Below, piece after piece: positions 1,425 to 62,808 of a DNA stretch of 64,000 nt. Numbering within the stretch: the stretch's first letter is position 1; each line of letters starts with the position of its first letter. The position numbers and the translations under genes were made by a program. The notes below the pieces were generated by a model. That model did no database searches, had not been told where the DNA came from, and saw only the letters and a list, made by a program, of their open reading frames with translations. This stretch comes from Escherichia coli phage phiS: sequence record PP449093.1; one strand, 5' to 3'.

Positions 1425-1451
1425 AGCCGATCCGAAAGGGTCGGCTTTTTC
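1425..1451 (+). terminator. Intrinsic terminator after nrdD
   Basis: Hairpin agccga-tccgaaaggg-tcggct followed by TTTTT. Confidence 0.6.
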
Positions 1452-1462
1452 GTTTTGGGGTG

Positions 1463-1490
1463 TTGACAACATGATTAGCTAATGTATAAT
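1463..1490 (+). promoter_or_regulatory. Sigma70-like early promoter (TTGACA, 16-nt spacer, TATAAT), followed by a conserved CATCGAAAACAA leader
   Basis: TTGACA at 1463-1468 and TATAAT at 1485-1490. The leader acatcgaaaacaacgagagga recurs at three other sites. Confidence 0.55.
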
Positions 1491-1519
1491 GCTCACATCG
1501 AAAACAACGAGAGGACAAC

Positions 1520-2607: not shown

Positions 2608-2636
2608 TTGACGGGGATCGCGAGATCCCCTATACT
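2608..2636 (+). promoter_or_regulatory. Early promoter with stem-loop in the spacer (TTGACG ... TATACT)
   Basis: TTGACG, then the 17-nt spacer ggggatcgcgagatcccc forming a hairpin, then TATACT. Confidence 0.5.
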
Positions 2637-2678
2637 ATATTCATCAAGACGAGATACAACTTTACAGGAGAATCAAAT

Positions 2679-2831
2679 ATGTGGACTTTACTGATTTGGG
2701 AAACTGAAAACGCACAAGTAGAAATCCGTGAATACGAATACCTAAGCCCAGCTTATCTATTAGCATCTCGCGGTGGTTACTATAAAGCGCAGATTGTAAA
2801 CGAGTTCGGGGTAATTGAATATGAGTTCTGA
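2679..2831 (+). CDS. Hypothetical small protein (50 aa)
   Basis: ATG at 2679 after RBS AGGAG. It overlaps the nrdG start. Confidence 0.35.
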   Translation: MWTLLIWETENAQVEIREYEYLSPAYLLASRGGYYKAQIVNEFGVIEYEF

Positions 2832-8945: not shown

Positions 8946-8980
8946 AAGGGAGACTCCGAAAGGGGTTTCCCTTTTTATTT
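8946..8980 (+). terminator. Intrinsic terminator
   Basis: Hairpin aagggagactcc-GAAA-ggggtttccctt followed by TTTTTATTTTT. Confidence 0.55.
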
Positions 8981-9026
8981 TTCTATGATATAGTGAGAGC
9001 ATCGAAAACGAAGAGAGGAAGAGACT

Positions 9027-9581
9027 ATGACAAAATTTAAGTATTGGGATGAAGAACTACAGAGTGAAATAAGGGATCATTTTGCCCATGACGAGAACGG
9101 CATACTCTATCACAAAACTCATAGTATTCATAAGGGTAAATTTGCACCTGGCGATATTGTCAAAACTCATGTAGGGTCACAAAGAGGACATTTATCTATT
9201 TGGTTATATCTAGGAAATGGTGTAAAATATAAATTGTATGTGCATAGGGTTGTTTGGTTTCTTGAGCATGGGTATCAGGTTGCTATAATCGACCATATAG
9301 ACCAAAATGTATTAAACAATGCACCAAGAAATTTAAGAGAAGCCACTAACCAAGAAAATAAAAGAAATCAGGGAAAGATCAAGAATGTAGGCGGAAGATA
9401 TAAGGGCGCATATCGTGCAAGTTCAGCTATGAAGTCTAAACCGTGGATATGTAAAGTCAGAATAGATGGGAAAACAAAACATTTTGGATATTTCGCGACA
9501 GAAGAAGAAGCGGCAAGAAAATATGATGAGGTGGCTAAGACTCTGTATGGAGAGTTTGCCGTTTTAAATTTTCCAGAATAA
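9027..9581 (+). CDS. HNH homing endonuclease with C-terminal AP2 DNA-binding domain (copy A)
   Basis: HNH core HRVVWFLEHGY...IDHIDQN...NLREAT..EN, then AP2-like GKTKHFGYFATEEEAARKYDEVAKTLYGEFAVLNF. It sits where T4 has alpha-gt. Confidence 0.8.
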   Translation: MTKFKYWDEELQSEIRDHFAHDENGILYHKTHSIHKGKFAPGDIVKTHVGSQRGHLSIWLYLGNGVKYKLYVHRVVWFLEHGYQVAIIDHIDQNVLNNAPRNLREATNQENKRNQGKIKNVGGRYKGAYRASSAMKSKPWICKVRIDGKTKHFGYFATEEEAARKYDEVAKTLYGEFAVLNFPE

Positions 9582-9600
9582 CTTTTAAGAGGATAATATT

Positions 9601-10626
9601 ATGAAAATTTTGATGTTGGGTGATTTGCACACTGGTATTGGTAATGATGATCCGTGGGTACATGACTATATTCTTGATACCATTAAAAAAGCACTAGATT
9701 ATTCTAAAAAACACAATATTAAGGTATGGATTCAGACAGGGGATTGGTTTGATTGCCGTAAAGCTATTACTCATGCGACGATGAGTTTTAACCGTACTAA
9801 GGTCATCCCGTTACTGGAAGAAGCTGGAATCACCTGTTATGTGACCGTAGGGAACCACGATCTATTCAAACGTCATAAGATCCAGCCTAACGCGCCGCGT
9901 GAAGTGTTAAGCCAGTATGATTGCATTAAGGTTATCGATAAACCAGAAACAGTTACCTTTGATGGGGTATCATTCGACCTGTTCCCGTGGTTTTGTGATG
10001 ACAATAAATCCGAGGTTTTAGAGTTTATTCAAAATTCATTCAGCGAATATTGTGTAGGCCATTGGGAATTGTCCGGCTACTATTTCTATAAAGGGTTAAA
10101 ATCCGAAGGTTATAGCGCGGACTTCCTCAAGAAATACCGTGAAGTGTTTTCCGGTCACTTTCATACTATCAGTGATGGCGGTAACGTAACGTATATTGGC
10201 ACACCATACACACTAACGGCTGGCGACGAAAATGATCCGCGTGGTTTTTGGGTATTCGATACAGATACACACAAAAAGGAGTTTATCCAGAATGACAAAA
10301 CTTATCATGTGCGTATCACTTACCCGTCAGATGATAAAATCGATGTAGAACGCTTTAAAGGGCTTAGTGTGCGCCTAATTGCAACGGTCGCTGATAATGG
10401 GTTAACTAAGTTAGAAAGCGCGTTAGAGGCCGTTGTACACAAGCTAAAAGTGGTCCATAAGCTGGAGAGTAGCGCATCACAGGAAACAGGTGTTATTGAA
10501 GTTAAAAGCACTATTCAGATGGTCTATGAATATCTGGAAGAACAAAACCTAGAACCGGAAGAACTTGCGGCAGTTAAGCGTATCTCCGATGAGCTTTTAG
10601 CCGAAGTAAATAGCGCAAAAAGTTAG
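9601..10626 (+). CDS. 47: Recombination endonuclease subunit gp47 (Mre11-like)
   Basis: MKILMLGDLHTG... and GNHD phosphoesterase motifs; upstream of gene 46 as in T4. Confidence 0.9.
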   Translation: MKILMLGDLHTGIGNDDPWVHDYILDTIKKALDYSKKHNIKVWIQTGDWFDCRKAITHATMSFNRTKVIPLLEEAGITCYVTVGNHDLFKRHKIQPNAPREVLSQYDCIKVIDKPETVTFDGVSFDLFPWFCDDNKSEVLEFIQNSFSEYCVGHWELSGYYFYKGLKSEGYSADFLKKYREVFSGHFHTISDGGNVTYIGTPYTLTAGDENDPRGFWVFDTDTHKKEFIQNDKTYHVRITYPSDDKIDVERFKGLSVRLIATVADNGLTKLESALEAVVHKLKVVHKLESSASQETGVIEVKSTIQMVYEYLEEQNLEPEELAAVKRISDELLAEVNSAKS

Positions 10627-25970: not shown

Positions 25971-26534
25971 GTGAGGGTAAGGAAAGCCAAAGAATGGAGA
26001 GATGAATTAAAGGATGAAATACGTCGAAGATATAGACACGAAAGGGGTATATTGATTCATAAAACAAACAGCAAAGCAAGCCGAACGACGAAAGAAGGCC
26101 AGTTTTATAAGGTTGGTGATATAGTAAAGGTATCTAAAGTCACAGCCGGACACCTAAAAGTCTCATTTTCTTTTGAAGGAAAACAATATTTTGAGCTTGT
26201 GCATAGAATAGTATTCTTCTTAGAGCATGGGTATTGCCCACCTGTCATTGACCATATTGACGGGAATCCAGAAAACAACGATCCTCCAAACTTAAGAGAG
26301 GCGACACAAAAACAGAATACCCAAAATATGAGAAGAAATAACCAAACTAAAACTAGCAATTTTAAAGGAGTGCATTATAATAGTCGTTCGGGTAAATGGG
26401 TCGCCCAGATAAGGGACAATGAAGGAAATAAAGTCTATATAGGACAATTTGACCTAGAAATAGACGCCGCAATAGTATATAATGACTATGCGTATAAGTA
26501 TCACGGTGAATTTGCAGTGTTTAATGTTATTTGA
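25971..26534 (+). CDS. HNH homing endonuclease with AP2 domain (copy B)
   Basis: VHRIVFFLEHGY...IDHIDGNPENN...NLREAT, then AP2-like KGVHYN...GKWVAQI...YIGQFDLEIDAAIVYNDYAYKYHGEFA. GTG start. Confidence 0.8.
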   Translation: MRVRKAKEWRDELKDEIRRRYRHERGILIHKTNSKASRTTKEGQFYKVGDIVKVSKVTAGHLKVSFSFEGKQYFELVHRIVFFLEHGYCPPVIDHIDGNPENNDPPNLREATQKQNTQNMRRNNQTKTSNFKGVHYNSRSGKWVAQIRDNEGNKVYIGQFDLEIDAAIVYNDYAYKYHGEFAVFNVI

Positions 26535-27636: not shown

Positions 27637-27697
27637 GTGTTGACAGCACAAACCAGATAGACAATAATACACACATACCAACTAAGGAGAATCAATT

Positions 27698-28453
27698 ATG
27701 AAACTGTTTGCTTTTAAATCTAACGAAGAATTGGCGCTGGTTGTTTTCCGGCTGAACTCTATCATGGCTGGTGCTTCACGTCGCAACAAAGACTTCTCTA
27801 TGAGCTTAGTCACTGTGCGTAACATTTACCGACAGACTCATTGCGCCTATTCCGGTGAGGCTTTCGGTGAAGGTGATGATGGACTCTCCTTAGAGCGCAT
27901 TGATTGCAATCTGGGATATGTTGATGGCAATGTAATTCCGGTTAAACTGAAATACAATTCTTTCCGTGGCAATCACACTATCGAATCTCTTAAAGAGATC
28001 CAGGAACTAGGAACTAACGGTAAACTTTCTGATGATGAAATTGCCCTACGTGCGAAGTACATCGAGTGGATCGAACTTAACGAGAATCGCATCAAAAATC
28101 AGGAAATGGCAATCGAAGAAAAGAAATTAGCAATCGAGCGCCACAAAAAGCACAACGAACCGGAGAAAGCAGAGGCAGCCGAGCGAGCGATTAAAAATAC
28201 TCTCTTCCGTATGGAAGAACGTTATCAGAAAATTGCCGATCTCAAGCAAGCCCTTAGCGAAATCAACAAGAAAGAAGAAAAACTTAAGGCTATTGCAAAC
28301 AATACCGAAATCGTGCTAAAATATACCAGCGTTTTGATTGAATCTCTTTCTAAGTATGAGAACTTAACGCCAGCACAAAAAGAACGCGTGAAATACGGGA
28401 TTCCGATTGATGCGTCGTGGATTGAATTGATGAAAGCGAAGGTAGGTTTATAA
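27698..28453 (+). CDS. HNH-motif protein with C-terminal coiled coil (251 aa)
   Basis: CAYSGEAF...LSLERID...GYVDGNVIPV...NSFRGN (HNH-like); the C-terminal half is K/E-rich and helical. Confidence 0.55.
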   Translation: MKLFAFKSNEELALVVFRLNSIMAGASRRNKDFSMSLVTVRNIYRQTHCAYSGEAFGEGDDGLSLERIDCNLGYVDGNVIPVKLKYNSFRGNHTIESLKEIQELGTNGKLSDDEIALRAKYIEWIELNENRIKNQEMAIEEKKLAIERHKKHNEPEKAEAAERAIKNTLFRMEERYQKIADLKQALSEINKKEEKLKAIANNTEIVLKYTSVLIESLSKYENLTPAQKERVKYGIPIDASWIELMKAKVGL

Positions 28454-31531: not shown

Positions 31532-32071
31532 ATGGGCGATTTGGAATTATATGAATATCTCCACGAAAGATACTACTACGAAAACGGTAGGCTATTTTTC
31601 AAAAAGGATTTAAAGAATCAGATTAAAGCTGGCGATGAAGCCGGAAACCAATTGACAAAATATGCCGAGGATGGCAGTATCATGTGGAGTCGATGGGTCA
31701 TGAAGGTCAACCGAAAACATTTTTATCGGGCGACCGTTATATGGGTGATGTTTAACAAACAATTACCGCCTAAAGGTTTTGAGGTCGACCATATTGACAG
31801 AAACTCATTAAATGATAAAATAGAAAACCTTCGATTGGTGACTCGAACCAACAACGTAAGAAACCGAGGGAAGATGAGAAAGAATCCTTCGTCAAAATAT
31901 ATTGGCGTTTGTTGGAACAAGTCACATAAGAAATGGGTTGCTAGGATAGGTGGTTATAAGCGCGTATACTTAGGATCATTTAAAGACGAAAAAGAGGCTG
32001 CATTGGCCTATGATAAAGCCGTTAAAGAACTTCATGGAGAATTTGCGGTTTTAAATTTCCCAAATGACTGA
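31532..32071 (+). CDS. HNH homing endonuclease with AP2 domain (copy C)
   Basis: VDHIDRNSLNDKIENLRLVTRTNN, then AP2-like YIGVCWNKSHKKWVARIGG...YLGSFKDEKEAALAYDKAVKELHGEFAVLNF. Confidence 0.8.
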   Translation: MGDLELYEYLHERYYYENGRLFFKKDLKNQIKAGDEAGNQLTKYAEDGSIMWSRWVMKVNRKHFYRATVIWVMFNKQLPPKGFEVDHIDRNSLNDKIENLRLVTRTNNVRNRGKMRKNPSSKYIGVCWNKSHKKWVARIGGYKRVYLGSFKDEKEAALAYDKAVKELHGEFAVLNFPND

Positions 32072-34284: not shown

Positions 34285-34313
34285 TTGACACTGGATCGGG
34301 GATATATCATAAT
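34285..34313 (+). promoter_or_regulatory. Early promoter with hairpin spanning the -10 (TTGACA ... CATAAT)
   Basis: ttgaca-ctggatc-ggggatatatcataatgtcccc. Confidence 0.45.
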
Positions 34314-34343
34314 GTCCCCATCAAAAACAAAAGGTTGACTTAT

Positions 34344-34538
34344 ATGAAACCGTTTAAGAATGAAGAAACTCAAAAATTTTGTGAAAAAATTGCAGAAATC
34401 TACTTGACAGGGGATAAGGAAAAAGCTAATATTATGTTCAAAGAGTCGGTTTCCATGATGAAAGTAGCACGCTGGGAACTGATCGCAATGCAAGACCAAA
34501 TTCGTTATCTAGTAACAAAGGAGAATCAAAATGCGTAA
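34344..34538 (+). CDS. Hypothetical protein (64 aa)
   Basis: ORF from the track; its 3' end overlaps the start of the interrupted ORF. Confidence 0.4.
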   Translation: MKPFKNEETQKFCEKIAEIYLTGDKEKANIMFKESVSMMKVARWELIAMQDQIRYLVTKENQNA

Positions 34539-34735: not shown

Positions 34736-34993
34736 ATGAATAGAAGTTTTGATTTTATGTTCGCCAAGTATCATCGAGACAAGAAATCGATGGACCTGTT
34801 TATGAAATGTCTGAGGTATGAATATGCGCACCTTCGTAAACACAAAATTGACCCGCAAGTTTCCTACGAAAACATCAAGAAATATGCGAAAGAAGTGATT
34901 GACAACGATTGCACCGTGACATATAATGCGTTTATTGATTTATGGGCGTGGGATGTAATCTACGCAGAGATGGACAAAGAAGATTTTAATTAA
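34736..34993 (+). CDS. Hypothetical protein (85 aa)
   Basis: RBS AAGGAG. Confidence 0.5.
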   Translation: MNRSFDFMFAKYHRDKKSMDLFMKCLRYEYAHLRKHKIDPQVSYENIKKYAKEVIDNDCTVTYNAFIDLWAWDVIYAEMDKEDFN

Positions 34994-35007
34994 GTGAGGA
35001 TTATATT

Positions 35008-37116
35008 ATGAAAATGCATATTGATAATGAAGAAGTATTTGGTAGTGACCTGAGCGGTGCGGTTGATTTTTCACTGAAAGCAAGTAGCAAGGCTTTTATG
35101 GTGCTTTCTAAGAATACCTATCAATATTGTGAGCGTGCTTGCGTCCGTGAATATTCATGTAATGCTACCGACACTCACAAAGAAGCCGGAACCTTAGACC
35201 GTCCGTTTGATATTCATTTACCGACTGCAATCGAACCGTATTTTTCTGTGCGTGATTATGGTACTGGTATTCCGTCTAAGAAAGAATTAGAACAACTGTT
35301 TACGGTTTACTTTGAATCAACAAAAGACCAGACTAATGACTATATCGGATCTTTTGGTTTAGGTGCGAAGTCTGCGTATAGCTATACCGACACCTTTACA
35401 ATCGTAAACTATTACAATGGTCGCGCTTATGGCTTTACAGCATTTGTGCAAAACTCTATGCCGAAAATGGTGCAGATTTTCGACGAACCGACCTATGAAG
35501 ACAATGGTCTGAAAATCACTATTCCGGTGAAAGAAAAAGACATTCAGACATGGCATCGAGAAGCGCAATTTGTACTGCGTCATTTTGGGGAACACAAACC
35601 TAATATCAATGCAATCGAAATTAATTATTTCCCTAGCTTTGATAATTATTATGTGTGTAATGGGCGTGATAACGATTCCTATGTAGTATATGCAATCATG
35701 GGTAAGATTCAGTATCCGATCCCGTATGAATATGTTCGCGGAACATGGTTAGAAGCTGTAAACCGCCAGCACCAGACCATTTACATTAATTTTGAGTTGG
35801 GTGATCTGGACCTGATGCCATCGCGTGAAGAAGTTCACTTGTCAATTGAGACTAAAGCGAACATCGAAAAACGTATTGCAGAAATCAATGAAATGATGTT
35901 GGAAAAGGTCAAAGAGAAGATCGCCAACATTAAAACAGAGCGTAAACTTGCGCAATTTATGAGCGAGTATTCATCGACTCAACGCAATATTATTAGCAAG
36001 ATGGGTAAGATCGGACAATGGGATGATCCGGTAGCAATCTATAATAAGTTTGTGAATGCGGGTAAAGATTCGCCTAATGACGTAGAAGGTCAGGTGTATA
36101 CTCTGTATCGTACTCGTCACACAATCAGTAAATTGCGCCCTGCTTTCGTTAGAAGTCAATACAACATTACGCATTTTGTATGGATGCATAAAGAAGATAT
36201 TCTGTGTGTAATTGATGATACCGATAAACCGAAACTGCGTGCACTGACTCTTAACGGCATGGTCCAGGAATACGGAATCAATAAAAAGGTACTTGTGTTC
36301 CGTCAGCGCAACGAAAAACATATGGAGACTTTCGAGTACATCAAACAGTATTATGATGATTCTGAAATGACCGTGATTAAAGTGTCTGAGGCCGATGATC
36401 TGCGTGCTAAAGCAGTTAAACCGGAGAAGACCGAGCGTACACAACATGAAGCGACTCCTAAGCTGCCTAACGTGTATATCATGGAAAAGATTGGTGACAG
36501 TTGGCATAAAACCAGCCATCACATGAAAGCGGCAGAGATTCGCGAGTTATCAGGCTTGCACATGTTCCGCGTAGGTGATGCATTCGAAAGCCGTAGTCGT
36601 AAATCGATCCATAGTGAAAATACATTACACACGGCGCTTGACTACTTCGGGGTAACAAAGTATATTATTACCCGTAACGAGACACAAAAATATCTCGTTG
36701 ACGAACAATTGGAATGTGCGCTAGAATTTGTTCGCGGTAAGCTGGCTGGTCTGGCTAAGAAGGTTAAGACCAATCATCTGGGGTATGGCGAATATCTGGG
36801 TGTGATCACTATGTTGTTTCATGACGATGAACTAGAACGCTGTGTTCCAGAATTTATTGACAGACTGTACGGTCGTCATTATAATAAAGAGGTTTCCAAG
36901 TTACTCCTTCGCACCCGTTGGATTATGGACGAAGAAACTAAAAAGATTTGTGATGAAAAATTCACGGCAGCAAACGAACGAATTAAAGCAGTTTGTGCGA
37001 AGTTTAAAGAGAATAGCCCGTTACTGTATGATATTGTAGATAACTGGTATCGTATTCTGCATAACGACAAACGCGCACAAGACTTTATGAAACTGGTTAA
37101 GAATGTTAAATTTTAA
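35008..37116 (+). CDS. rIIA: rIIA protein (GHKL-ATPase-like)
   Basis: 702 aa with DYGTGIP and GSFGLGAKS motifs; sits between 39 and rIIB as in T4. Confidence 0.85.
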   Translation: MKMHIDNEEVFGSDLSGAVDFSLKASSKAFMVLSKNTYQYCERACVREYSCNATDTHKEAGTLDRPFDIHLPTAIEPYFSVRDYGTGIPSKKELEQLFTVYFESTKDQTNDYIGSFGLGAKSAYSYTDTFTIVNYYNGRAYGFTAFVQNSMPKMVQIFDEPTYEDNGLKITIPVKEKDIQTWHREAQFVLRHFGEHKPNINAIEINYFPSFDNYYVCNGRDNDSYVVYAIMGKIQYPIPYEYVRGTWLEAVNRQHQTIYINFELGDLDLMPSREEVHLSIETKANIEKRIAEINEMMLEKVKEKIANIKTERKLAQFMSEYSSTQRNIISKMGKIGQWDDPVAIYNKFVNAGKDSPNDVEGQVYTLYRTRHTISKLRPAFVRSQYNITHFVWMHKEDILCVIDDTDKPKLRALTLNGMVQEYGINKKVLVFRQRNEKHMETFEYIKQYYDDSEMTVIKVSEADDLRAKAVKPEKTERTQHEATPKLPNVYIMEKIGDSWHKTSHHMKAAEIRELSGLHMFRVGDAFESRSRKSIHSENTLHTALDYFGVTKYIITRNETQKYLVDEQLECALEFVRGKLAGLAKKVKTNHLGYGEYLGVITMLFHDDELERCVPEFIDRLYGRHYNKEVSKLLLRTRWIMDEETKKICDEKFTAANERIKAVCAKFKENSPLLYDIVDNWYRILHNDKRAQDFMKLVKNVKF

Positions 37117-41387: not shown

Positions 41388-41416
41388 TTGACTTACAGAA
41401 TCCAACATCGCATAAT
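41388..41416 (+). promoter_or_regulatory. Early promoter (TTGACT, 17 nt, CATAAT) with conserved CCCATACCAAACAAAAGGAGAATCA leader
   Basis: Leader shared with promoters at about 27639, 41921 and 42234. Confidence 0.5.
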
Positions 41417-41447
41417 ACACCCATACCAAACAAAAGGAGAATCAAAG

Positions 41448-41720
41448 ATGTGCAACGAAAACAGCAAAGTGTTGGCAATTGCAGATAAAGTAGGTTACTG
41501 GAAATGCTGGGATGATATGGAGAAATTAGGCGGTCGCTATCTCGATAACTTAGAGTTGCATTATTGCCAAGCGCGTAATGCAGAAGTTGCGGGAGTAGCA
41601 ATCGAAGATATTCCGTCTAAAGTCTTCGGATTCTCTAAAGATGATACTCTAGAGTATGTTTTTAAGGCTGTAATGGATCAAGCATGGGAAGACGCAGAGA
41701 CACGCGCTCTTGATTGGTGA
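41448..41720 (+). CDS. Hypothetical protein (90 aa)
   Basis: ATG after AAGGAGAA. Confidence 0.5.
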   Translation: MCNENSKVLAIADKVGYWKCWDDMEKLGGRYLDNLELHYCQARNAEVAGVAIEDIPSKVFGFSKDDTLEYVFKAVMDQAWEDAETRALDW

Positions 41721-41724
41721 TAAT

Positions 41725-41943
41725 ATGAACTGGTATAAAATTTGGAAAAATCAGGTGGAGGCTTATCTAGGGTATAAGCCCACCGACGAAGAATTACTCG
41801 ATGCAATGTACGAAGACGGACTAAATCCGAAAGTAGCCGCGCAAGAATACGCGGAATGGATGAAGGTCGAAAAGAACCTAGAGGCAACGAAAAATTTTCA
41901 CGAAAATAATAAAAAAGCAGTTGACGCCAAAGGTCATCGGTAG
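41725..41943 (+). CDS. Hypothetical protein (72 aa)
   Basis: ORF from the track with adjusted start. Confidence 0.45.
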   Translation: MNWYKIWKNQVEAYLGYKPTDEELLDAMYEDGLNPKVAAQEYAEWMKVEKNLEATKNFHENNKKAVDAKGHR

Positions 41944-41949
41944 TATTAT
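41921..41949 (+). promoter_or_regulatory. Early promoter (TTGACG, 17 nt, TATTAT) with CCCATACCGAAACGAA leader
   Basis: Lies inside the 3' end of the upstream ORF. Confidence 0.4.
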
Positions 41950-41983
41950 ACCCCCATACCGAAACGAAGTGGAGGAAATAAAA

Positions 41984-42226
41984 ATGGTTAAAGTTAATGT
42001 TATCGAAGTTGCACTGTACGACGCTGGAATCTTCCTGAATGAAAAAGAAGCTGCCGTCCTCGACGAACTGAAAACTGTTTTTGTTCCTGTAGTAGAAGAC
42101 GTAGAAGCAATCAAAATCGCTTCTCGTAAACTGTCCCGTGAAGCATTTGACATGATTGATCCGGTTTTCAAAGTTATGCACGAATGCGCGGTTATGATGA
42201 CCGAAGAAGAAGCGAAAAATTTCTAA
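41984..42226 (+). CDS. Hypothetical acidic protein (80 aa)
   Basis: ATG after GTGGAGGAA. Confidence 0.5.
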   Translation: MVKVNVIEVALYDAGIFLNEKEAAVLDELKTVFVPVVEDVEAIKIASRKLSREAFDMIDPVFKVMHECAVMMTEEEAKNF

Positions 42227-42233
42227 AAACCAG

Positions 42234-42262
42234 TTGACGTAAAGAAACGGGAGTAGTAAGAT
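42234..42262 (+). promoter_or_regulatory. Early promoter (TTGACG ... TAAGAT) containing hairpin gggagtagtaagatactccc
   Basis: The same 20-nt palindromic element recurs in the promoter at 42512. Confidence 0.4.
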
Positions 42263-42291
42263 ACTCCCATACCAAACGAAAGGAGAATCAC

Positions 42292-42504
42292 ATGAAATCT
42301 ATCGAGCAAGTAGTAACAGAGTTTATGAGCTACGAAGGAAACCGCATCTTTGGACGTTCTCAAGTTCGCGAGATCGTGGAAGAGGTCTCTGGAGAGTTTG
42401 CGGAATCTGGTCACGTTACCACGCAAGAACGTAAAGAAGAAGCAGTAAACCAGATCATGGCTATGCAGAAAATGCGTATTAATGCACGAGCGGGTAAAAA
42501 TTAA
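42292..42504 (+). CDS. Hypothetical protein (70 aa)
   Basis: ATG after AAGGAGAA. Confidence 0.5.
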   Translation: MKSIEQVVTEFMSYEGNRIFGRSQVREIVEEVSGEFAESGHVTTQERKEEAVNQIMAMQKMRINARAGKN

Positions 42505-42511
42505 AAAGTAG

Positions 42512-42540
42512 TTGACACCGGATTAAGGGAGTAGTAAGAT
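42512..42540 (+). promoter_or_regulatory. Early promoter (TTGACA ... TAAGAT) containing hairpin gggagtagtaagatactccc
   Basis: Duplicate of the element at 42249. Confidence 0.4.
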
Positions 42541-42573
42541 ACTCCCATCAAGAAAAACATTGAGGAATATATT

Positions 42574-43332
42574 ATGAAAAACATTATCGCTGCTATCGTT
42601 CTTTCTGCTACTGCTTTCGGTGCTAACGCTGCGTCCTTTGATTGCGCTAAAGCGACTACCAAATCAGAGAAGTTTATTTGTGCTAACGAGTCTATCTCCG
42701 CGCTGGATTCGAAACTTCATGAAGTATATGTTAAGGCTGTTAAGATTGATCCGTCTCTTAAACAAGAGCAACGCAACTGGAATAAAACTGTTCGTGATAC
42801 AATGATCAATATCGGGCAGATTCAGCCACTGGAGGCTGTATACAACGCTCAAATCCAAAACTTGATGAATGCATTACCTAAAGAAGAAACCGCGTCAGAA
42901 AGCGATTCAGAGACTTCTGTGAAGGTTGACGAAGAACAACCGAAACAGGAAGAAAAAGTGGTGGAAGAACCGAAGGTCGAAACTTTTACCTATCAATGCA
43001 CCGTTCGTTATGAGTGGAGTATGAAAGATGGAATTTCCACAAAAATTAAAGAAGCGCCACTGTATGCCAAATATGGAAATCAACCAGGAGATCTTAAAGT
43101 AACCATTAAAAATGGGAAGATGGTTGATTTTGTATACATTGATGAATACAACGTACACAAAGCAAACGTACAAGAAACCGTTATGACTAAAGGCGGGTTT
43201 TATAAGAATGTTGGCAAGAAAGATCTATATGAATACTCCGTTTTCGAACCAAACGACGGAACTATTCGATTTGAAAAACGTCATCCTACATTCGGTGGCG
43301 CAATTGATGTAGATCAATACGTTTGCAAGTAA
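42574..43332 (+). CDS. Secreted protein with DUF1311/LprI-like (lysozyme-inhibitor-type) N-terminal domain (252 aa)
   Basis: Signal peptide MKNIIAAIVLSATAFGANA, then SFDCAKATTKSEKFICANESISALDSKLHEVY, the DUF1311 signature as I recall it. Acidic linker and a C-terminal domain follow. Confidence 0.65.
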   Translation: MKNIIAAIVLSATAFGANAASFDCAKATTKSEKFICANESISALDSKLHEVYVKAVKIDPSLKQEQRNWNKTVRDTMINIGQIQPLEAVYNAQIQNLMNALPKEETASESDSETSVKVDEEQPKQEEKVVEEPKVETFTYQCTVRYEWSMKDGISTKIKEAPLYAKYGNQPGDLKVTIKNGKMVDFVYIDEYNVHKANVQETVMTKGGFYKNVGKKDLYEYSVFEPNDGTIRFEKRHPTFGGAIDVDQYVCK

Positions 43333-46558: not shown

Positions 46559-46622
46559 AGCCGTTTCTCCTTAGTAGTTTCCCTTCCGTGGGAGTTTTCC
46601 TTAATTCTTTTTATAATTAAGT

Positions 46623-47405
46623 CTAAACAGCCGGTCCGTAAATGGCTCCGCGATTTTGCCACGTTGGGGCAGACCCTATAACAGCATAACCGGCATCGCC
46701 GCCATTGTATTCATATCCTTGACCACGAATATTACATCTACCTCCTGCGGCGCCTACCTCACCACCGCTTCCGCCATTATAGACATCGTTCATGGACCCC
46801 GAACCAGGCGCATAAAGAGTACCAGCAGTTGCGCCTGATTGCATGTTGGCAGATCCACCAGCAGCACCAAACGGACGACCGCCGCCACCACCAAAAGTTA
46901 ATTTCATTGGTTTCGTAGGAGAATAATACCCACCACCTCCACCGCCACCGCCGCCAGCGATAGCACCGCCATTATTAATTCTTAGCCTCCCACCAATATC
47001 ATTTTGAATACAATGACCCCCAGCTGATCCAGGACTATTGCTACCGCCATTCCCTCCACGACCATACATCGTTACGCCATGTATATTCAACTGAACATAT
47101 TCATTCGGTGTATCTCCATACATAAAGAATAAAGGAACATCTTTAGAATATGATACTAAATCTCCAGTGATATTAAACACTATAGGTGTACTACCTGCCT
47201 CAAAGCATCTATCACGGAACCACTGACCATTGAAGTTATGGTCTGCTCCAAGTGTATGAATAATTTCTCGCGAGCGACCTGCAAATTGACTCATCCAGCA
47301 AGGAACACCCAATCTTAATTGACCAGCCGCTTGACTCATCCATCGTTGTCCTGTTTCATTTACGGATGAACTACCAATCCAACCAGGAACACCAACTACT
47401 GCCAT
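46623..47405 (-). CDS. 38: Receptor-recognising adhesin gp38 (T2-type, glycine-rich motifs)
   Basis: Poly-Gly segments [12 protein letters not shown] and [15 protein letters not shown] typical of T2-like gp38; follows gene 37. Confidence 0.8.
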
Positions 47406-47441
47406 AATTTATACTCCAAAGGGGGCATTGCCCCCTTGTTG

Positions 47442-50342
47442 TTAGAATTTAAAATATTTACTAATTTTGCGAGCAATTTTAGTGAAGAAAGGAGTTTTCA
47501 ATTCTTTAATTTCTTCACTCATTTCCTGAATAGCCTTAATTAAAAGAGCATTCACAGCAGAGTTAGAAATTGTCAGAACATCGTCTGGATTATCAAGATT
47601 GCCAACCTTTGAAGATTTTACAGCTTCCGGTAATATTTCTTGTAAATCCTGTGCGATAATGCCGATCTCGTGACCGATAATTTCACGGTCTTTAAGAGAT
47701 TTAACTTTATCGTAAGTTTTCACTTTCAGTTTGCCAATTAAACTTAACGCATTTCCTGTATAATCTTCTATATTGTCTTTAAGGCGACGATCTGAACGAA
47801 TATACACATCGTTAAAGCTACCGTTTCCGGTTGCGTTAAATTCACCGCTTGCGTGGAATTGGAACTCCCCAGCTTGAACATGAAGAACAGCGGCTGCGGT
47901 ATTATTACCATCACCGGGACAATGAACGTCCATAGCAGCGATATATTGACGCCCCCAATCAACCGCTTTCCAAACAGCATGAGCACTGTCAATACTTTTC
48001 TGGCAGTCAACCAACAAACCAGCAGGGCGGTCTCTCCATGAAACATATGCACCACCATCAACTTCACCACGGATAAGTCCTTGATCTGCGGCATAAGGAA
48101 CACGCCCTTCCAGTTGAATCATTGCGCCCTTAAAGTGATGACTAAATGGTCCACCGTGGTTATTGCGAATATGTAAAATACCCTCATCGGTCGCCCAAAT
48201 AACAGCCTTTTCTGTTTCGCTAGCATCTCTAAACCAGATATGGCGTGCACCAGTTGAGTTTTTGATGGTTATTCCATTAGGTCCACGCACGGTCAAAGCA
48301 CCGGATACATCAAATAAAACGGTGTCATCTGTTCTACGTTCCGTATAGAAGTGATAACCTTTGGAATCACCGATTTCCATTACTGCCGCGCGTCCAACTT
48401 CTGAATTTCCCCAATTGTTGATAGAGAATCGTTCAGAGCTATTATTCATCTGATTTAGGTATAATGTACCGTCAGTGAAGGTTTCGCCAAAGAATCTGGT
48501 TTTAACGCCGTTAGTACCCCCCACGCGTTCAAATTCAGCCAAGAAACCTTTGGAATCTCGCATACTCAAAACGTTATTGCGTCCTGTATTACTGTTACCC
48601 CAATGGATTAATTCAATATAGTCCATTGACTGACGAGACCCTGATCTAAACACCATATTATCTTCGATGCGGGTGCTACCATCAATTCCCAGATGTAAAC
48701 AGCGTGCGGTAGCTGTGCCACCTAGATCTAATCCACCTTCGGCGAAATCATAGCTGAATGGTCTACGAGTATTCCAATTTCCAAAAGAATCTTTTAAATC
48801 GGTAGTCAGTATATGGAAACTAGTACCATCATTTCTAAAAATTAAGCCATAATTGCCACCTTTAACAGCCAAACGAGCATTTTCAGATAATGCAACTTCG
48901 CTATTCATTACAATTTTCTGGCCTTTACCGCCAGTAATATGCAATTCACCGTTTTCGATCAAGTTTATTGAGTTTTGACCGTTATCGTTCCACCAAATAA
49001 AATCTTTGGTCGTCAAATCACCAAAACCAAACCAGCCATTACGAACATCTTGACCAGTGCGATAATCCATAAAATTAAAATGGCTTGCTTCGTTTGGTCC
49101 TCGACGAATATCAATACCAGCATTAGAACCGGAACCTAAGCCACCATCGATGGTCAATCTACGAATATGCAAACCGGTTACAGCCGAAAGCAATAATTGT
49201 TGGGTTACATCGGTATATCCAGTAGCAAGACGATAATTTTGGTCATCAACACTTTCGTGCCAGATAGTGGCAGGACCAGAGCTTCTAAACCGACGTAACA
49301 TCTTTTTAGCATTTGTCGGTTGTTCGTTCATATGCTCAATGTCATATTGTCCTTGATGGTTGCCAGCAAAATTTAATGTTCCACGGTTACTGAAACTGTT
49401 AAAAGAGCGTATTGTATATGCATCATAGATATGATCAGCTACAGGTTTTTCGCCTACATATTCAGGTCGATCAAGTACAGTTAAATTAACATCGCTGGAC
49501 GCTTGATATTCAGCCATTACCATATTAGTAAATTCGAAGTAACATGCATAGATATCATAAGTGTCATCACCTGTATTAATGGCACAAAATTGATTTTCGT
49601 AACCGGAAACATGATGATACGCAACAAAGTTAATTCCTTTAGGCGAACCGTTGCTAGTCCTTATAACAAGTTCAATAATATTACATTGTCCAGTTCGTCC
49701 TACGTTCCACCCATTTCCACCAATCAATCTAATTTTCAAGCCACGTCCGTCATTTTGCGGAATAAAGGCGGTAGCAATTTTAAACCATCCACTTTCTACA
49801 CCAAAGTTGATGGTCTTCTGGAACATCCGATCTACTTCTTGCTTGCTGTATACATTCAATTCCGACGGACTAGGCTTATCTCCTTCGTGATACATGCGAT
49901 ATGAATATGCTAATACACCATCGGCATTATAACCATAGGTTTTTACAGTAGGGACAATGCTAGAACCATAAGTAAAATCAAACCCACGAGCATGATTGAT
50001 ACCGCTAGGATGGGGAATATGCAAAGCAAGTGCTAGATGACCATCCATATCATTAGTGCGAAATGCCCCGAATTTGTCAAGATTTCGTGCGGTCGGATCA
50101 TCGAAATAGTTTGCGGTATTACTCCACACAAGGTCACCCACAACCACGCGACCGTTTACATTAAAGCCTTTGTCATAAACAGGAGGGCAGCTTAAATTAA
50201 CAATTTGCCCATCATCATTTTTTGTAAGCAGATATTGGTCTGCTAAGTTAATTGCCAACTCTCCCGGATTCATCGTACCAGCATCCGGTTTACGTCCGGC
50301 TGCGCTAGTGCGTTTAAACTGGATTCTGTTTAAATCTGCCAT
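47442..50342 (-). CDS. 37: Long tail fibre distal subunit gp37
   Basis: MADLNRIQFKRTSAAGRKP...GELAINL resembles the T4 gp37 N-terminus. The C-terminal ~120 aa look like an intramolecular chaperone domain. Confidence 0.9.
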   Translation of the reverse strand: MADLNRIQFKRTSAAGRKPDAGTMNPGELAINLADQYLLTKNDDGQIVNLSCPPVYDKGFNVNGRVVVGDLVWSNTANYFDDPTARNLDKFGAFRTNDMDGHLALALHIPHPSGINHARGFDFTYGSSIVPTVKTYGYNADGVLAYSYRMYHEGDKPSPSELNVYSKQEVDRMFQKTINFGVESGWFKIATAFIPQNDGRGLKIRLIGGNGWNVGRTGQCNIIELVIRTSNGSPKGINFVAYHHVSGYENQFCAINTGDDTYDIYACYFEFTNMVMAEYQASSDVNLTVLDRPEYVGEKPVADHIYDAYTIRSFNSFSNRGTLNFAGNHQGQYDIEHMNEQPTNAKKMLRRFRSSGPATIWHESVDDQNYRLATGYTDVTQQLLLSAVTGLHIRRLTIDGGLGSGSNAGIDIRRGPNEASHFNFMDYRTGQDVRNGWFGFGDLTTKDFIWWNDNGQNSINLIENGELHITGGKGQKIVMNSEVALSENARLAVKGGNYGLIFRNDGTSFHILTTDLKDSFGNWNTRRPFSYDFAEGGLDLGGTATARCLHLGIDGSTRIEDNMVFRSGSRQSMDYIELIHWGNSNTGRNNVLSMRDSKGFLAEFERVGGTNGVKTRFFGETFTDGTLYLNQMNNSSERFSINNWGNSEVGRAAVMEIGDSKGYHFYTERRTDDTVLFDVSGALTVRGPNGITIKNSTGARHIWFRDASETEKAVIWATDEGILHIRNNHGGPFSHHFKGAMIQLEGRVPYAADQGLIRGEVDGGAYVSWRDRPAGLLVDCQKSIDSAHAVWKAVDWGRQYIAAMDVHCPGDGNNTAAAVLHVQAGEFQFHASGEFNATGNGSFNDVYIRSDRRLKDNIEDYTGNALSLIGKLKVKTYDKVKSLKDREIIGHEIGIIAQDLQEILPEAVKSSKVGNLDNPDDVLTISNSAVNALLIKAIQEMSEEIKELKTPFFTKIARKISKYFKF

Positions 50343-61066: not shown

Positions 61067-61076
61067 TGAATTTTAA

Positions 61077-61104
61077 AGCCTTCCTTCGGGGAGGCTTTTT
61101 TATT
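61077..61104 (+). terminator. Intrinsic terminator after gene 32
   Basis: agccttcc-TTCG-gggaggct hairpin (UUCG loop) followed by TTTTTATT. Confidence 0.65.
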
Positions 61105-61128: not shown

Positions 61129-61156
61129 TTGACATGCTGATGTTAGGATGTATAAT
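61129..61156 (+). promoter_or_regulatory. Early promoter (TTGACA, 16 nt, TATAAT) with CATCGAAACAAAGGAGGA leader
   Basis: Near-identical cassette to the one at 62420. Confidence 0.5.
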
Positions 61157-61186
61157 ACAAACATCGAAACAAAGGAGGATAAAAAT

Positions 61187-62431
61187 ATGAAAACTTACTT
61201 TGCAAAAGATGTTTGTTATATTATCAAAAATAAATCCGTCTCAAAAACACCAGAACATTACGAGAATCTCTCAATAAGTTATGCATTGTCTCATGGTTTC
61301 GTTTATTTGGGGTTTATTGGAGAATATTCTGGATGCCAAACCCTGTCAAATTTTGAATGTAAAAGACATGGAACGTTTGCGGTCAGAGTAAAAAATCTAA
61401 ATCATGCTAAACATGGTTGCCCAAACTGTGCCCTTGAGAATAGGGCAGAAAAAAGAAAATTGAGTATAGAAAAGATTTATAACGACATAAATCGAATCTG
61501 TGATGAGAACGGAACCATAGAATTAACAGAAATTAAAGGTGGGTATAAAACAACAAAAACACGAAATTTATTTTTTAAATGTAAATTGTGTAATGGCATG
61601 TTTAATACATCACATGATCATTTAAAACGAGGTCAAGCATGTCCAAAATGTCGGTATAAAAAAATTTCTGTGTGTAATACTAGAAACCAACTTGATATTG
61701 AACTTGACATAAAAATAGAATGTAAAAAAAGAAAAACCGTTGAATTTGTAGAATTTGAAAATGGATATTGCAGATACAAGTCAAAAAATTTAATAATGAG
61801 ATGTTTGCGTGGACACGGAAATTACACAACAACAGCAAACGACTTTTTTAAGGGATGTGGTTGTCCTACATGCGGAGGAACGAAAAGACTAACAGAAAAA
61901 CAAGCATCTGAACAAATGATAAAAGAGTGTGAAATTAGAGGTTATGATTTTTTGGGATTTTTTAATGGGTATAAAAAGTCGGCAGAACCTAATGCAAAAT
62001 TAAAATGTAAACGCAGCGGGGTAAGTTTTTATACATCACACAACAATTTTATGAAAGGACAAAACTGTAAGTGTTGCTCTGAATTTGGATATAGAACAAC
62101 GAAATCTGGTGTTTTCTATGTACAGAAACTGTTAGAAAATAATATTTTTTGTGGTGTTAAATTTGGTGTAACCAATAGAACAACAAAAGAACGAATTGGA
62201 GGTCAATCTCGCCTTTCCAAATTCGACCACGAGATCTTTTATGAACTTACTTTACAAGACGGTCAAAAGATCTTAGACTTAGAGAACAAGATCAAGGAAG
62301 CGATGAAAGGTAAAACTTCCTATATCTCAAAAGAAGATATGCCGGATGGCTACACAGAGACAGTAGCACCGTCCGAATTGAGCACTATCATGTATATCGT
62401 AAAATCTTTTGAAAAAGAGTTGACAAAGTAA
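61187..62431 (+). CDS. Zinc-finger-repeat protein with C-terminal GIY-YIG / T5orf172-like motif; putative free-standing homing endonuclease
   Basis: Repeated CxxC modules (GCPNCA, CKLCNG, ACPKC, GCPTCGG) and C-terminal GVFYVQKLLENNIFCGVKFGVTNRTTKER. Inserted between 32 and frd. Confidence 0.55.
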   Translation: MKTYFAKDVCYIIKNKSVSKTPEHYENLSISYALSHGFVYLGFIGEYSGCQTLSNFECKRHGTFAVRVKNLNHAKHGCPNCALENRAEKRKLSIEKIYNDINRICDENGTIELTEIKGGYKTTKTRNLFFKCKLCNGMFNTSHDHLKRGQACPKCRYKKISVCNTRNQLDIELDIKIECKKRKTVEFVEFENGYCRYKSKNLIMRCLRGHGNYTTTANDFFKGCGCPTCGGTKRLTEKQASEQMIKECEIRGYDFLGFFNGYKKSAEPNAKLKCKRSGVSFYTSHNNFMKGQNCKCCSEFGYRTTKSGVFYVQKLLENNIFCGVKFGVTNRTTKERIGGQSRLSKFDHEIFYELTLQDGQKILDLENKIKEAMKGKTSYISKEDMPDGYTETVAPSELSTIMYIVKSFEKELTK

Positions 62432-62447
62432 CATAGTATTGTATAAT
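62420..62447 (+). promoter_or_regulatory. Early promoter (TTGACA, 16 nt, TATAAT) with CATCGAAACAAAGTGAGGA leader
   Basis: Lies within the 3' end of the preceding gene; paralogous to 61129. Confidence 0.5.
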
Positions 62448-62478
62448 ACGAACATCGAAACAAAGTGAGGATTACATT

Positions 62479-62808
62479 ATGTGGACTGTAGAACAAGAAG
62501 TTAACGGATCAATCGAAATTCTGTCTTGTGGTACTATTGAGGAATGTCTTAATACAGCCAACCGCAATTGTATTACAATTTATGAGTCTCGTCGCGGTGA
62601 TGGTAGTTTAATTCAAAGTGATTATCGTTACACTGCCGATAAAATTATCTTTCGTTTCTGGGAAAATGGTGTTAACGTTGGTGTCAGCCTACTGAAAAAG
62701 TATCGTGACTATTCAGAACGCTATTATGTTTGCCCTGATGATGGCACAGTGTTTAAAACAGAGATTAACGAAGAAAACGTTAACGAAAACTACCTTAAAA
62801 TGGTCTGA
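62479..62808 (+). CDS. Hypothetical protein (109 aa)
   Basis: ORF from the track. Confidence 0.5.
   Translation: MWTVEQEVNGSIEILSCGTIEECLNTANRNCITIYESRRGDGSLIQSDYRYTADKIIFRFWENGVNVGVSLLKKYRDYSERYYVCPDDGTVFKTEINEENVNENYLKMV

Follow-up and report, generated by a model that had tools for sequence, protein, structure and literature searches.

The window analysed here is a stretch of 64,000 nucleotides from Escherichia coli phage phiS (PP449093.1), an RB49-like coliphage of the genus Krischvirus with ~96% identity to RB49, phi1, JSE, and ~55 other Krischvirus genomes. Its + strand is the early-gene strand of RB49, and the elements described at the four sites below all lie on it. An initial annotation had pointed to a leader shared by four intergenic regions (1485, 8989, 61151, and 62442); the four strings are all present there, each coordinate being the first base of a -10 box. 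The sites have a common layout: the -10, five bases, CATCGAAA(A)C, a short A-rich stretch, and a Shine-Dalgarno (SD) sequence, GAGGA or GGAGGA, 4-7 nt 5' of an ATG. The start codons of sites 1 to 4 are at 1520, 9027, 61187, and 62479.

Site 1 lies between nrdD and the orthologue of RB49p055, as named from the RB49 annotation. A terminator scan identified a stem-loop at 1425..1446 (9 pairs, 6 GC, T-tail), an intrinsic terminator after nrdD located 5' of the -35. The sigma70 promoter at 1463..1490 matches the consensus at 12/12 positions, and the site reads TTGACA(1463)-16-TATAAT(1485) gctcaCATCGAAAACAACGAGAGGAcaacATG(1520). Its leader (1496..1519; ATCGAAAACAAC) starts with CAT, has a predicted +1 at A1497 based on the spacing from the -10, and carries the SD GAGGA at 1511-1515, with the ATG of the RB49p055 orthologue at 1520. 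This cassette is 100% identical to the RB49 copy beside nrdD. The ORF that follows it is no more than the next gene after nrdD exon 2.

Site 2 lies between a-gt.4 and, again by the RB49 annotation, an HNH endonuclease gene and gene 47. A terminator stem-loop after a-gt.4 (8946..8973; 12 pairs, 6 GC, T-tail) precedes TGaTATAGT(8986-8994) gagagCATCGAAAACGAAGAGAGGAagagactATG(9027). The extended -10 at 8986..8994 is visible in the sequence and went unreported by the -35/-10 scan, and no -35 hexamer was found at this site by the consensus scan; the distance from the extended -10 to the CAT is the same as elsewhere. The leader (9000..9026) starts with CAT, with a predicted +1 at A9001 and the SD GAGGA at 9015-9019. 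An HNH-AP2 gene (9027-9581; Pfam HNH_3, 8.6e-12) is inserted at the ATG, and 3' of it a new SD precedes the restart of gene 47 at 9601.

Site 3 lies between gene 32 and a gene annotated 'endonuclease' that occupies the RB49p240 slot. The terminator after gene 32 (61075..61098; 10 pairs, 5 GC, T-tail) is followed by TTGACA(61129)-16-TATAAT(61151) acaaaCATCGAAACAAAGGAGGAtaaaaatATG(61187), a 12/12 consensus sigma70 promoter (61129..61156) and a leader (61162..61186; ATCGAAACAAA) with the CAT start, a predicted +1 at A61163, and the SD GGAGGA at 61174-61179. The ORF starting at ATG 61187 (61187-62431) encodes a 414-aa CapR/zinc-finger protein. Its 3' end overlaps the promoter of site 4, such that the stop codon TAA (62429-62431) falls between the -35 and -10. 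Site 4, TTGACA(62420)-16-TATAAT(62442) acgaaCATCGAAACAAAGTGAGGAttacattATG(62479), again has a 12/12 consensus sigma70 promoter (62420..62447), and its leader (62453..62478; ATCGAAACAAAG) has the CAT start, a predicted +1 at A62454, and the SD GAGGA at 62467-62471. The terminator scan returned no stem-loop here. The ATG at 62479 opens the RB49p239 orthologue, which is followed by frd, both named from the RB49 annotation.

The description of the four regions as promoters holds for sites 1, 3, and 4 and not fully for site 2, which has an extended -10 only, with no -35. Nor are the regions otherwise unrelated, as had been stated: sites 1, 3, and 4 also have the 12/12 consensus -35/-10 and the 16-bp spacer in common. 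Upstream of these promoters, sites 3 and 4 have the A-rich stretches atgaaaaagg and ttgaaaaagag, a feature that is weaker at site 1 (cgttttggggtg). The hairpins of sites 1, 2, and 3 belong to the 'upstream of -35' subclass.

The 5'UTRs predicted from these starts measure 23-28 nt and are ~50% A. Folding these leaders produced no structure beyond that of shuffled controls (MFE z from -0.45 to +1.2), and we therefore rejected a structured operator or riboswitch. A scan of the whole window against Rfam at the gathering threshold gave no match, such that no known RNA family covers the leaders.

The leader is highly overrepresented. The composite pattern ACATCGAAA-N4-14-GAGGA occurs three times in the window, compared to 0.01 expected from shuffles, and CATCGAAA alone occurs nine times, a weak enrichment over the 4.3 expected. 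In the complete genome of RB49, the early strand holds 14 copies of CATCGAAAC and the late strand one (0.84 expected), and a -10-like box followed by 5 nt and CATCGAA has 10 occurrences on the early strand and none on the late (0.09 expected). The genome-wide motif search that the initial annotation had put forward as a check gives, in RB49, a frequency far above chance and biased to one strand. Chance as the origin of the leader similarity is excluded by the composite-pattern and RB49 counts.

We also counted, in the assembled complete genome of RB49, units in which a strong promoter is followed by an SD and an ATG, finding 54-55 on the early strand against 3 on the opposite one. Each base of the CAT lies at the same offset from the -10 in 38-40 of 54 such units, with the full CAT in 33; the CAT is followed by C(G/A)AAAC, ACC(G/A)AAC, or similar and then by the SD. 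The RB49-wide profile is also enriched for A at -33 to -28 relative to the start of the -10.

A position weight matrix (PWM) of the leader was then trained on RB49 and applied to the + strand of the window with a cut-off of at least 13.5 bits, yielding ten matches (1491, 2637, 27669, 34314, 41417, 41950, 42263, 42541, 61157, and 62448). The matrix by itself is unspecific, with shuffles scoring 15-19 bits, and gains meaning only when the -10 box, the strand, and the SD-ATG context are considered as well; all ten matches lie directly 3' of a -10 box and 5' of an SD-ATG. Site 2 brings the number of cassettes in the window to 11, every one of them on the + strand. The CAT is invariant and lies 5 nt after the -10 in 11/11, which places the predicted start on its A. 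A motif common to four promoters had been proposed; it is indeed common to all four, and was under-counted, as the window holds at least 11 such cassettes.

The further members, also on the + strand, are found at 2608..2681 (leader CATCAAGACGAG…GGAGAATCAAATATG, with a stem-loop between the -35 and -10), 27640..27700 (leader CATACCAACTAAGGAGAATCAATTATG), 34285..34345 (leader CATCAAAAACAAAAGG…ATG), and 41388..41450 (leader CATACCAAACAAAAGGAGAATCAAAGATG, in a hyperplastic region). Two more, at 41921..41986 and 42234..42294, form the left and right borders of an inserted ORFan (41984-42226) that is absent from RB49, and the last, at 42510..42576, lies at the junction where this phage lacks RB49p263, with a 17-bp overlap of the homology blocks. 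Most members of the family lie 5' of small ORFans.

The cassettes appear to split into two sub-types with different ribosome-binding modules. The majority sub-type has a 17-bp spacer, CATAAT/TATACT, and the SD block GGAGAATCAAAATG. The minority sub-type, to which sites 1, 3, and 4 belong, has a 16-bp spacer, tgTATAAT, ATCGAAACAA, and a GAGGA-type SD, often followed by TTATATTATG. Distant blastn found the cassette only in Krischvirus, plus one probable chance match. A search of IMG/VR with TATAAT-N5-CATCGAAAC gave, among the matches listed, mostly single and scattered occurrences, which looks chance-like for 15 specified bases and is uninformative about the spread of the cassette beyond Krischvirus.

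The nature of these ribosome-binding modules bears on the idea that the shared block is an RNA operator or processing signal for the translational repressor RegA or the endoribonuclease RegB, by which the four genes would be co-regulated post-transcriptionally, an idea that we consider quite improbable. Orthologues of regA and regB are present in RB49, with regA inside the window, and the strong RegB sites of T4, GG*AGRAYARAA, lie in the Shine-Dalgarno regions of early genes (Uzan & Miller 2010, PMC3014915). The SD region of site 3, GGAGGATAAAA, fits that consensus (GGAGRAYARAA) at 11/11 positions, the only full match in the window, and the majority SD block GGAGAATCAAA fits it at 10/11. Throughout RB49, GGAGAATCAA occurs 26 times on the early strand and 0 times on the other, and GGAU is present at site 4. 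In addition, the SD-AUG spacers of sites 3 and 4 (AUAAAAAUAUG and AUUACAUUAUG) are A+U-rich, like T4 RegA targets. RegA sites in T4 and RB69 are A+U-rich, overlap the AUG or lie between SD and AUG, and are unstructured with a 5' poly(A) tract, as in AAAAUUAUG.

However, these RegA- and RegB-like features sit in the SD-AUG part. The shared CATCGAAAC block lies outside it, occupying the very 5' end of the leader, ahead of the SD and ~15-18 nt from the AUG. The RegB likeness concerns the SD module, not CATCGAAAC, and is not a trait of all four sites, being full only at site 3; sites 1, 2, and 4 lack GGAG, and the matches are candidate sites for the divergent RB49-type RegB. Both GGAG/GGAU and an A+U-rich spacer are missing from sites 1 and 2 (spacers GACAACAUG and AGAGACUAUG). 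The other + strand copies of CATCGAAA (35862, 50099, and 51304) are all inside ORFs rather than in intergenic leaders, no conserved structure is seen among the leaders, and the fixed position of the CAT relative to the -10 box is a feature of the DNA. The suggestion of a shared translational operator, RegA-like in kind, is not supported, given the placement of the block 5' of the SD and the spacers of sites 1 and 2.

To compare the parts of the cassette, we calculated the mean majority-base frequency over 18 cassette copies from the gene 32-frd interval of nine genomes. The value is 0.98 for the -35 hexamer, 0.65 for the 16-bp spacer, 1.00 for the -10 hexamer, 0.77 for the discriminator, 0.97 for the CATCGAAAC block (ATCGAAAC), and 0.76 for the next eight bases. 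The first eight transcribed bases thus vary as little as the promoter hexamers do, with drift in the discriminator and spacer. Recombination alone leaves unexplained why ATCGAAAC matches the hexamers in invariance while the discriminator drifts. We infer that its near-invariance reflects selection for efficient initiation, escape, or translation combined with homogenisation by recombination.

This invariance also raises the possibility that AUCGAAAC is a functional element in itself, whether as a phage-specific signal at the start of the transcript that governs promoter escape, stability of the mRNA 5' end, or S1-dependent loading of ribosomes, or as a preferred crossover point recognised by a dedicated factor. 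To our knowledge, neither such a signal nor a dedicated-factor crossover role has been described for promoter-early stem-loop (PeSL) cassettes, and we regard this as unlikely. The signal reading concerns a subclass of early genes, namely those with the 16-bp spacer, tgTATAAT, and a GAGGA-type SD.

The start region also resembles two promoters of an unrelated phage. T7 A1 and A3 are classic strong promoters for E. coli RNA polymerase. At both, the polymerase starts at the A of a CAT: the c is followed at the start point by ATCGAGAGGGA in A1 (transcript AUCGA…) and by ATGAAACGACAGTGAG in A3 (transcript AUGAAACGACAGUGAG). Site 4 has a c followed by ATCGAAACAAAGTGAG (AUCGAAACAAAGUGAG), very near to both T7 starts. 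The likeness, judged by inspection, spans only ~6-16 nt. A1 and A3 differ from the cassettes in that they are unrepeated, have no shuffling role, and have long leaders. Nevertheless, the likeness suggests that the block reflects what the host RNA polymerase initiates on efficiently, and the block may combine efficient initiation and escape by the host polymerase with an open, A-rich landing site for ribosomes.

Taken further, the similarity to A1 and A3 would fit convergence, in which a strong host-polymerase promoter and ribosome-binding site together lead to a CAT start, a purine- or A-rich initial transcript, and GAGGA, such that the four sites share function rather than descent or mobility and the link to shuffling is incidental. 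The conservation of ATCGAAAC at the level of the hexamers, with drift in the discriminator and spacer, is the pattern expected from direct selection, and the ribosome-binding module GAGGATTATATTATG is also found without any promoter, for example before rIIA at 35008. But sites 3 and 4 and their orthologues are alike at positions of no known function (gaaaaag(g/a)(t)g upstream of the -35), and the chimeric cassettes described below, with their freely recombined halves, as well as experimentally sequenced mini-circle junctions that map in the block, indicate real crossovers within it. Convergence is largely compatible with the PeSL explanation favoured here, differing only on whether recombination matters, and as a full account we find it very improbable.

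Several of the places where the window departs from RB49 coincide with cassettes. Homology breaks off at 9056 (29 nt inside the HNH ORF that follows site 2) and at 61193 (6 nt inside the ORF that follows site 3). Breaks at 41876 and 42233 enclose the extra ORFan that is flanked by the cassettes at 41921 and 42234, and at a break near ~42500, where RB49p263 is missing, the blocks share 17 bp at the 42510 cassette. The right-hand breakpoint associated with site 3 is inside the ORF (62086) and not in the next cassette, and some differences from RB49 lie away from cassettes, including two extra HNH genes and divergence in the tail fibre.

The gene 32-frd interval, which includes sites 3 and 4, provides a clean case. 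Where two cassettes flank a gene here, JSE has only one, located between gene 32 and the p239 orthologue. The JSE cassette is chimeric: its terminator, -35, and spacer are like those of site 3, and its SD and ORF start are like those of site 4, with the switch point falling within TGTATAATACAnACATCGAAACAAAG. Across nine genomes the interval contains one, two, or three cassettes, and the core is found at 18/18 gene boundaries. The left halves are of three kinds, as are the right halves, and they are variously combined, as in La+R3 in JSE; La+R2 and Lc+R3 in ECD7; La+R1, Lb+R2, and Lc+R3 in FL04; and La+R1 and Lb+R3 in this window. Judging from the spans of the records of 58 relatives, the interval ranges from ~740 to ~2,400 bp in at least six size classes, which suggests at least six allelic states of gene 32-frd among these relatives. 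The discriminators of sites 3 and 4 covary within genomes, which is suggestive of concerted evolution, too weakly for us to claim it.

Phi1 has a leader identical to that of site 2 (…CATCGAAAACGAAGAGAGGAAGAGACTATG), and there it leads straight into gene 47. The match to site 2 stops ~10 nt beyond the ATG in 53 of 58 relatives, nearly all of which have gene 47 annotated at that point; in the other five a homing endonuclease is annotated at that position instead. The HNH allele of this window is present in none of the 58. Its protein and RB49p040 are equal in length and 47% identical, stand behind an identical leader, and each allele brings its own new SD for gene 47. The leader of site 2 is, on these comparisons, the native gene 47 leader, and HNH genes that inserted precisely at its ATG have captured it; Phi1 and most relatives have no HNH gene there.

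These observations bear on a possible tie of the leader to mobile homing-endonuclease genes, which would carry it along as promoter and leader or have it as their target site. Site 2 does precede an HNH_3+AP2 gene, some records label the gene behind site 3 'endonuclease' or 'GIY-YIG', and site 1 is ~1 kb downstream of an intron with a homing-endonuclease ORF. However, Phi1 and, by annotation, most of the 53 of 58 relatives lack the HNH gene and have gene 47 driven directly by the site 2 leader. Of the three HNH genes in the window only one has the leader, the other two HNH-AP2 genes (25971 and 31532) being without it. The site 3 gene and its alleles contain one to six CapR/treble-clef zinc-finger stretches, with no nuclease domain detected, and most family members precede small ORFans. 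We give this explanation almost no credence. The remark that three of the leaders precede mobile-type genes or the intron-adjacent ORF was right about the intron and about the HNH gene at site 2; the link to mobile genes is otherwise unspecific, with one of three HNH genes involved and no nuclease domain at site 3.

We conclude that the shared leader is very probably the downstream half of PeSL cassettes, the promoter-early stem-loop elements of RB49-like T4-type phages. The initial annotation had likened it to PeSL-type modular promoter cassettes, and this is borne out by the RB49-like nature of the phage, the anatomy of the cassettes, and the chimeras and breakpoints at sites 2, 3, and 4. 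The element is already known from RB49 and phi1 and is ordinary for this group of phages. PeSLs were defined in RB49 and phi1, with 51 and 52 copies, and extend from a stem-loop and AT-rich region through the -35/-10 to the SD and start codon, with conservation spanning ~100 bp (Arbiol 2010, PMC2839356). Promoter and terminator activity was demonstrated for several other copies, including PeSL206/205 and 211/210, and nrdD is among the few known genes associated with PeSLs (Arbiol 2010, PMC2839356). Recombination between neighbouring PeSLs has been proposed, with support from inverse PCR, to excise and insert ORFs as mini-circles, as for the ORF192 and ORF210 circles, and the sequenced junctions fall in the -10-to-SD interval (Arbiol 2010, PMC2839356). 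That interval is the stretch flagged in this phage. The early-promoter logo of RB49 has a preference for C at -3 to -1 (Nolan et al. 2006), and the RB49 early-promoter consensus agrees with the 5'-end mapping of Desplats et al. 2002, according to Nolan et al. 2006. PeSLs have since been extended to other T4-like groups, in which degraded half-cassettes are also found (Comeau et al. 2014, PMC4122927).

In the PeSL model, host sigma70 RNA polymerase would bind the near-consensus -35/-10, or the extended -10 at site 2, and is predicted to initiate 7 nt past the -10, on the A of the invariant CAT. The resulting 23-28 nt 5'UTR (AUCGAAAC…), A-rich, unstructured, and ending in a strong Shine-Dalgarno, may allow immediate high expression of the next ORF, and the upstream stem-loop, where present, would shield the unit from read-through. 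Because the same sequence recurs at dozens of gene boundaries, the cassette could also act as a patch of ~30-70 bp of homology for general recombination, by which ORFs would be deleted, inserted, or swapped. The model predicts that ORF 61187-62431 can form a mini-circle with its junction within TGTATAAT…CATCGAAACAAAG.

These findings leave current knowledge of PeSLs unchanged, adding another RB49-like genome in which they mark the boundaries of differing gene content. What they add is, first, that conservation of the cassette continues past the transcription start to cover the first 8 transcribed bases, a feature that the original papers do not single out; second, that gene 32-frd is a clean natural example of cassette shuffling, with 1-3 cassettes and crossover in the -10-to-leader core; and third, that there are two sub-types, one with a ribosome-binding module resembling the T4 RegB cleavage consensus. 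A possible use lies in annotating therapeutic Krischvirus phages and in choosing insertion sites for engineering them.

The closest known counterparts are the PeSLs of Arbiol and colleagues, which come from the same genus and share with the cassettes here a near-consensus sigma70 promoter (TTGACA-N16-18-TATAAT), an AT-rich upstream region, a stem-loop, and an SD and start codon at the 3' end. They are present in ~50 copies per genome and tied to indels between relatives, with documented -10-to-SD crossovers. Sites 2 and 4, lacking a -35 and a stem-loop, respectively, are partial PeSLs by this comparison. In the PeSL papers the alignments are anchored on promoter and SD, and the CAT/ATCGAAAC block receives no separate mention, the words 'leader' and 'untranslated' being absent from their text. 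The model figure of Arbiol places the ORF192 crossover in the AT-rich region, whereas in gene 32-frd the crossover lies in the -10-to-leader core.

More distantly, the PeSLs and PmSLs of T4/PST and KVP40/nt-1 have the same architecture and proposed role, and their degraded or half PeSLs near indels resemble site 2 (PMC4122927). They differ in their promoters (TTTACW/TAYWAT or TTGYVH/TAWWAT) and stem-loops and are analogues rather than sequence relatives; the type-B cassette of this phage was found by distant blastn only in Krischvirus. Unlike integrons, PeSLs have no known dedicated integrase or attC-type site, and general homologous recombination on short homology is presumed. They nonetheless have in common with integron cassettes, with the 'linker' sequences of Botstein and Campbell, and with morons, an analogy drawn by Arbiol (PMC2839356), that short conserved borders allow genes to be swapped together with their expression signals.

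The region of the window downstream of gene 32 differs among relatives in the genes that follow the promoter-early stem-loop (PeSL) cassettes. The variable gene behind the cassette at 61151 (site 3), found at 61187-62431 in the window and at loci L002, L006, L007 and L011 of relatives, encodes proteins of 392-541 aa that have different N-termini and one to six CapR-homology/treble-clef zinc-finger stretches. No Pfam nuclease domain was found in these proteins, despite the database labels 'endonuclease' and 'GIY-YIG'. The 3' third of the window's gene (from 62086) is common to RB49, with 88% identity. In ECD7 and FL04, the interval from gene 32 to frd holds a pair of adjacent 109-aa genes (587-916 and 972-1301 in ECD7 locus L009; 3074-3403 and 3459-3788 in FL04 locus L011), each preceded by its own cassette, with one gene's protein beginning MFLNATL… and the other's MWTVEQ….

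Within the hyperplastic region, we found two differences between the window and RB49, at 41876-42233 and at about 42497-42514. The first includes an extra ORFan of 80 aa (41984-42226), which is flanked by two cassettes. At the second, RB49p263 is missing from the window, and the homology blocks overlap by 17 bp at the cassette at 42510. Both differences look like PeSL-mediated indels. The distal long-tail-fibre region (46613-49822) also diverges strongly from RB49, with either no match or just 76% identity; this presumably reflects a host-range difference that is not related to the cassettes.

HNH endonuclease genes are a further source of variation. At 9027-9600, an HNH_3+AP2 endonuclease gene has its insertion point precisely at the gene 47 ATG, and RB49 carries a different allele at the identical position. 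Both alleles encode 184 aa, with 47% amino-acid identity to one another, and each brings a new SD for gene 47; the window's allele was found in none of the 58 relatives of the phage collection. Two more HNH_3+AP2 genes not present in RB49 lie between genes 61 and 56 (25971-26534) and upstream of gene 39 (31532-32071), and the start-site/leader block shared by PeSL cassettes, CATCGAAAC, is absent at both. The window opens within a group I intron that splits nrdD: positions 1-426 cover the 3' portion of this intron and contain the last part of a homing-endonuclease ORF encoded in it, with its stop near 282-284. The corresponding region of JSE is 95.8% identical, and the intron is missing in RB49 and most other relatives. 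The Rfam Intron_gpI match at 173-378 scores 26.8 bits (E=1e-4), which is under the gathering score.

The gene driven from the cassette at 1485 (site 1) is an orthologue of RB49p055, which is 178 aa long in RB49. A run of six T at 1636-1641, in place of seven in RB49, splits the orthologue into ORFs 1520-1705 and 1654-2058; the cause is either a sequencing error in the homopolymer or a true frameshift or pseudogene.

Cassettes of the minority type, with a GAGGA-type SD, typically have the ribosome-binding module GTGAGGATTATATTATG, which also stands before rIIA (34991-35010; ATG at 35008) without an adjoining promoter or CATCGAAAC block. Thus, the SD module can occur apart from the start-site block. 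Another SD block, GGAGAATCAA(A), has copies in the window at 2667, 27686, 34520 and 41436, and genome-wide in RB49 occurs 26 times on the early strand and 0 times on the other. Of the 11 positions in GGAGRAYARAA, the consensus for strong RegB cleavage sites in T4, the block agrees with 10. These observations suggest that RegB targets most PeSL-driven ORFan mRNAs.
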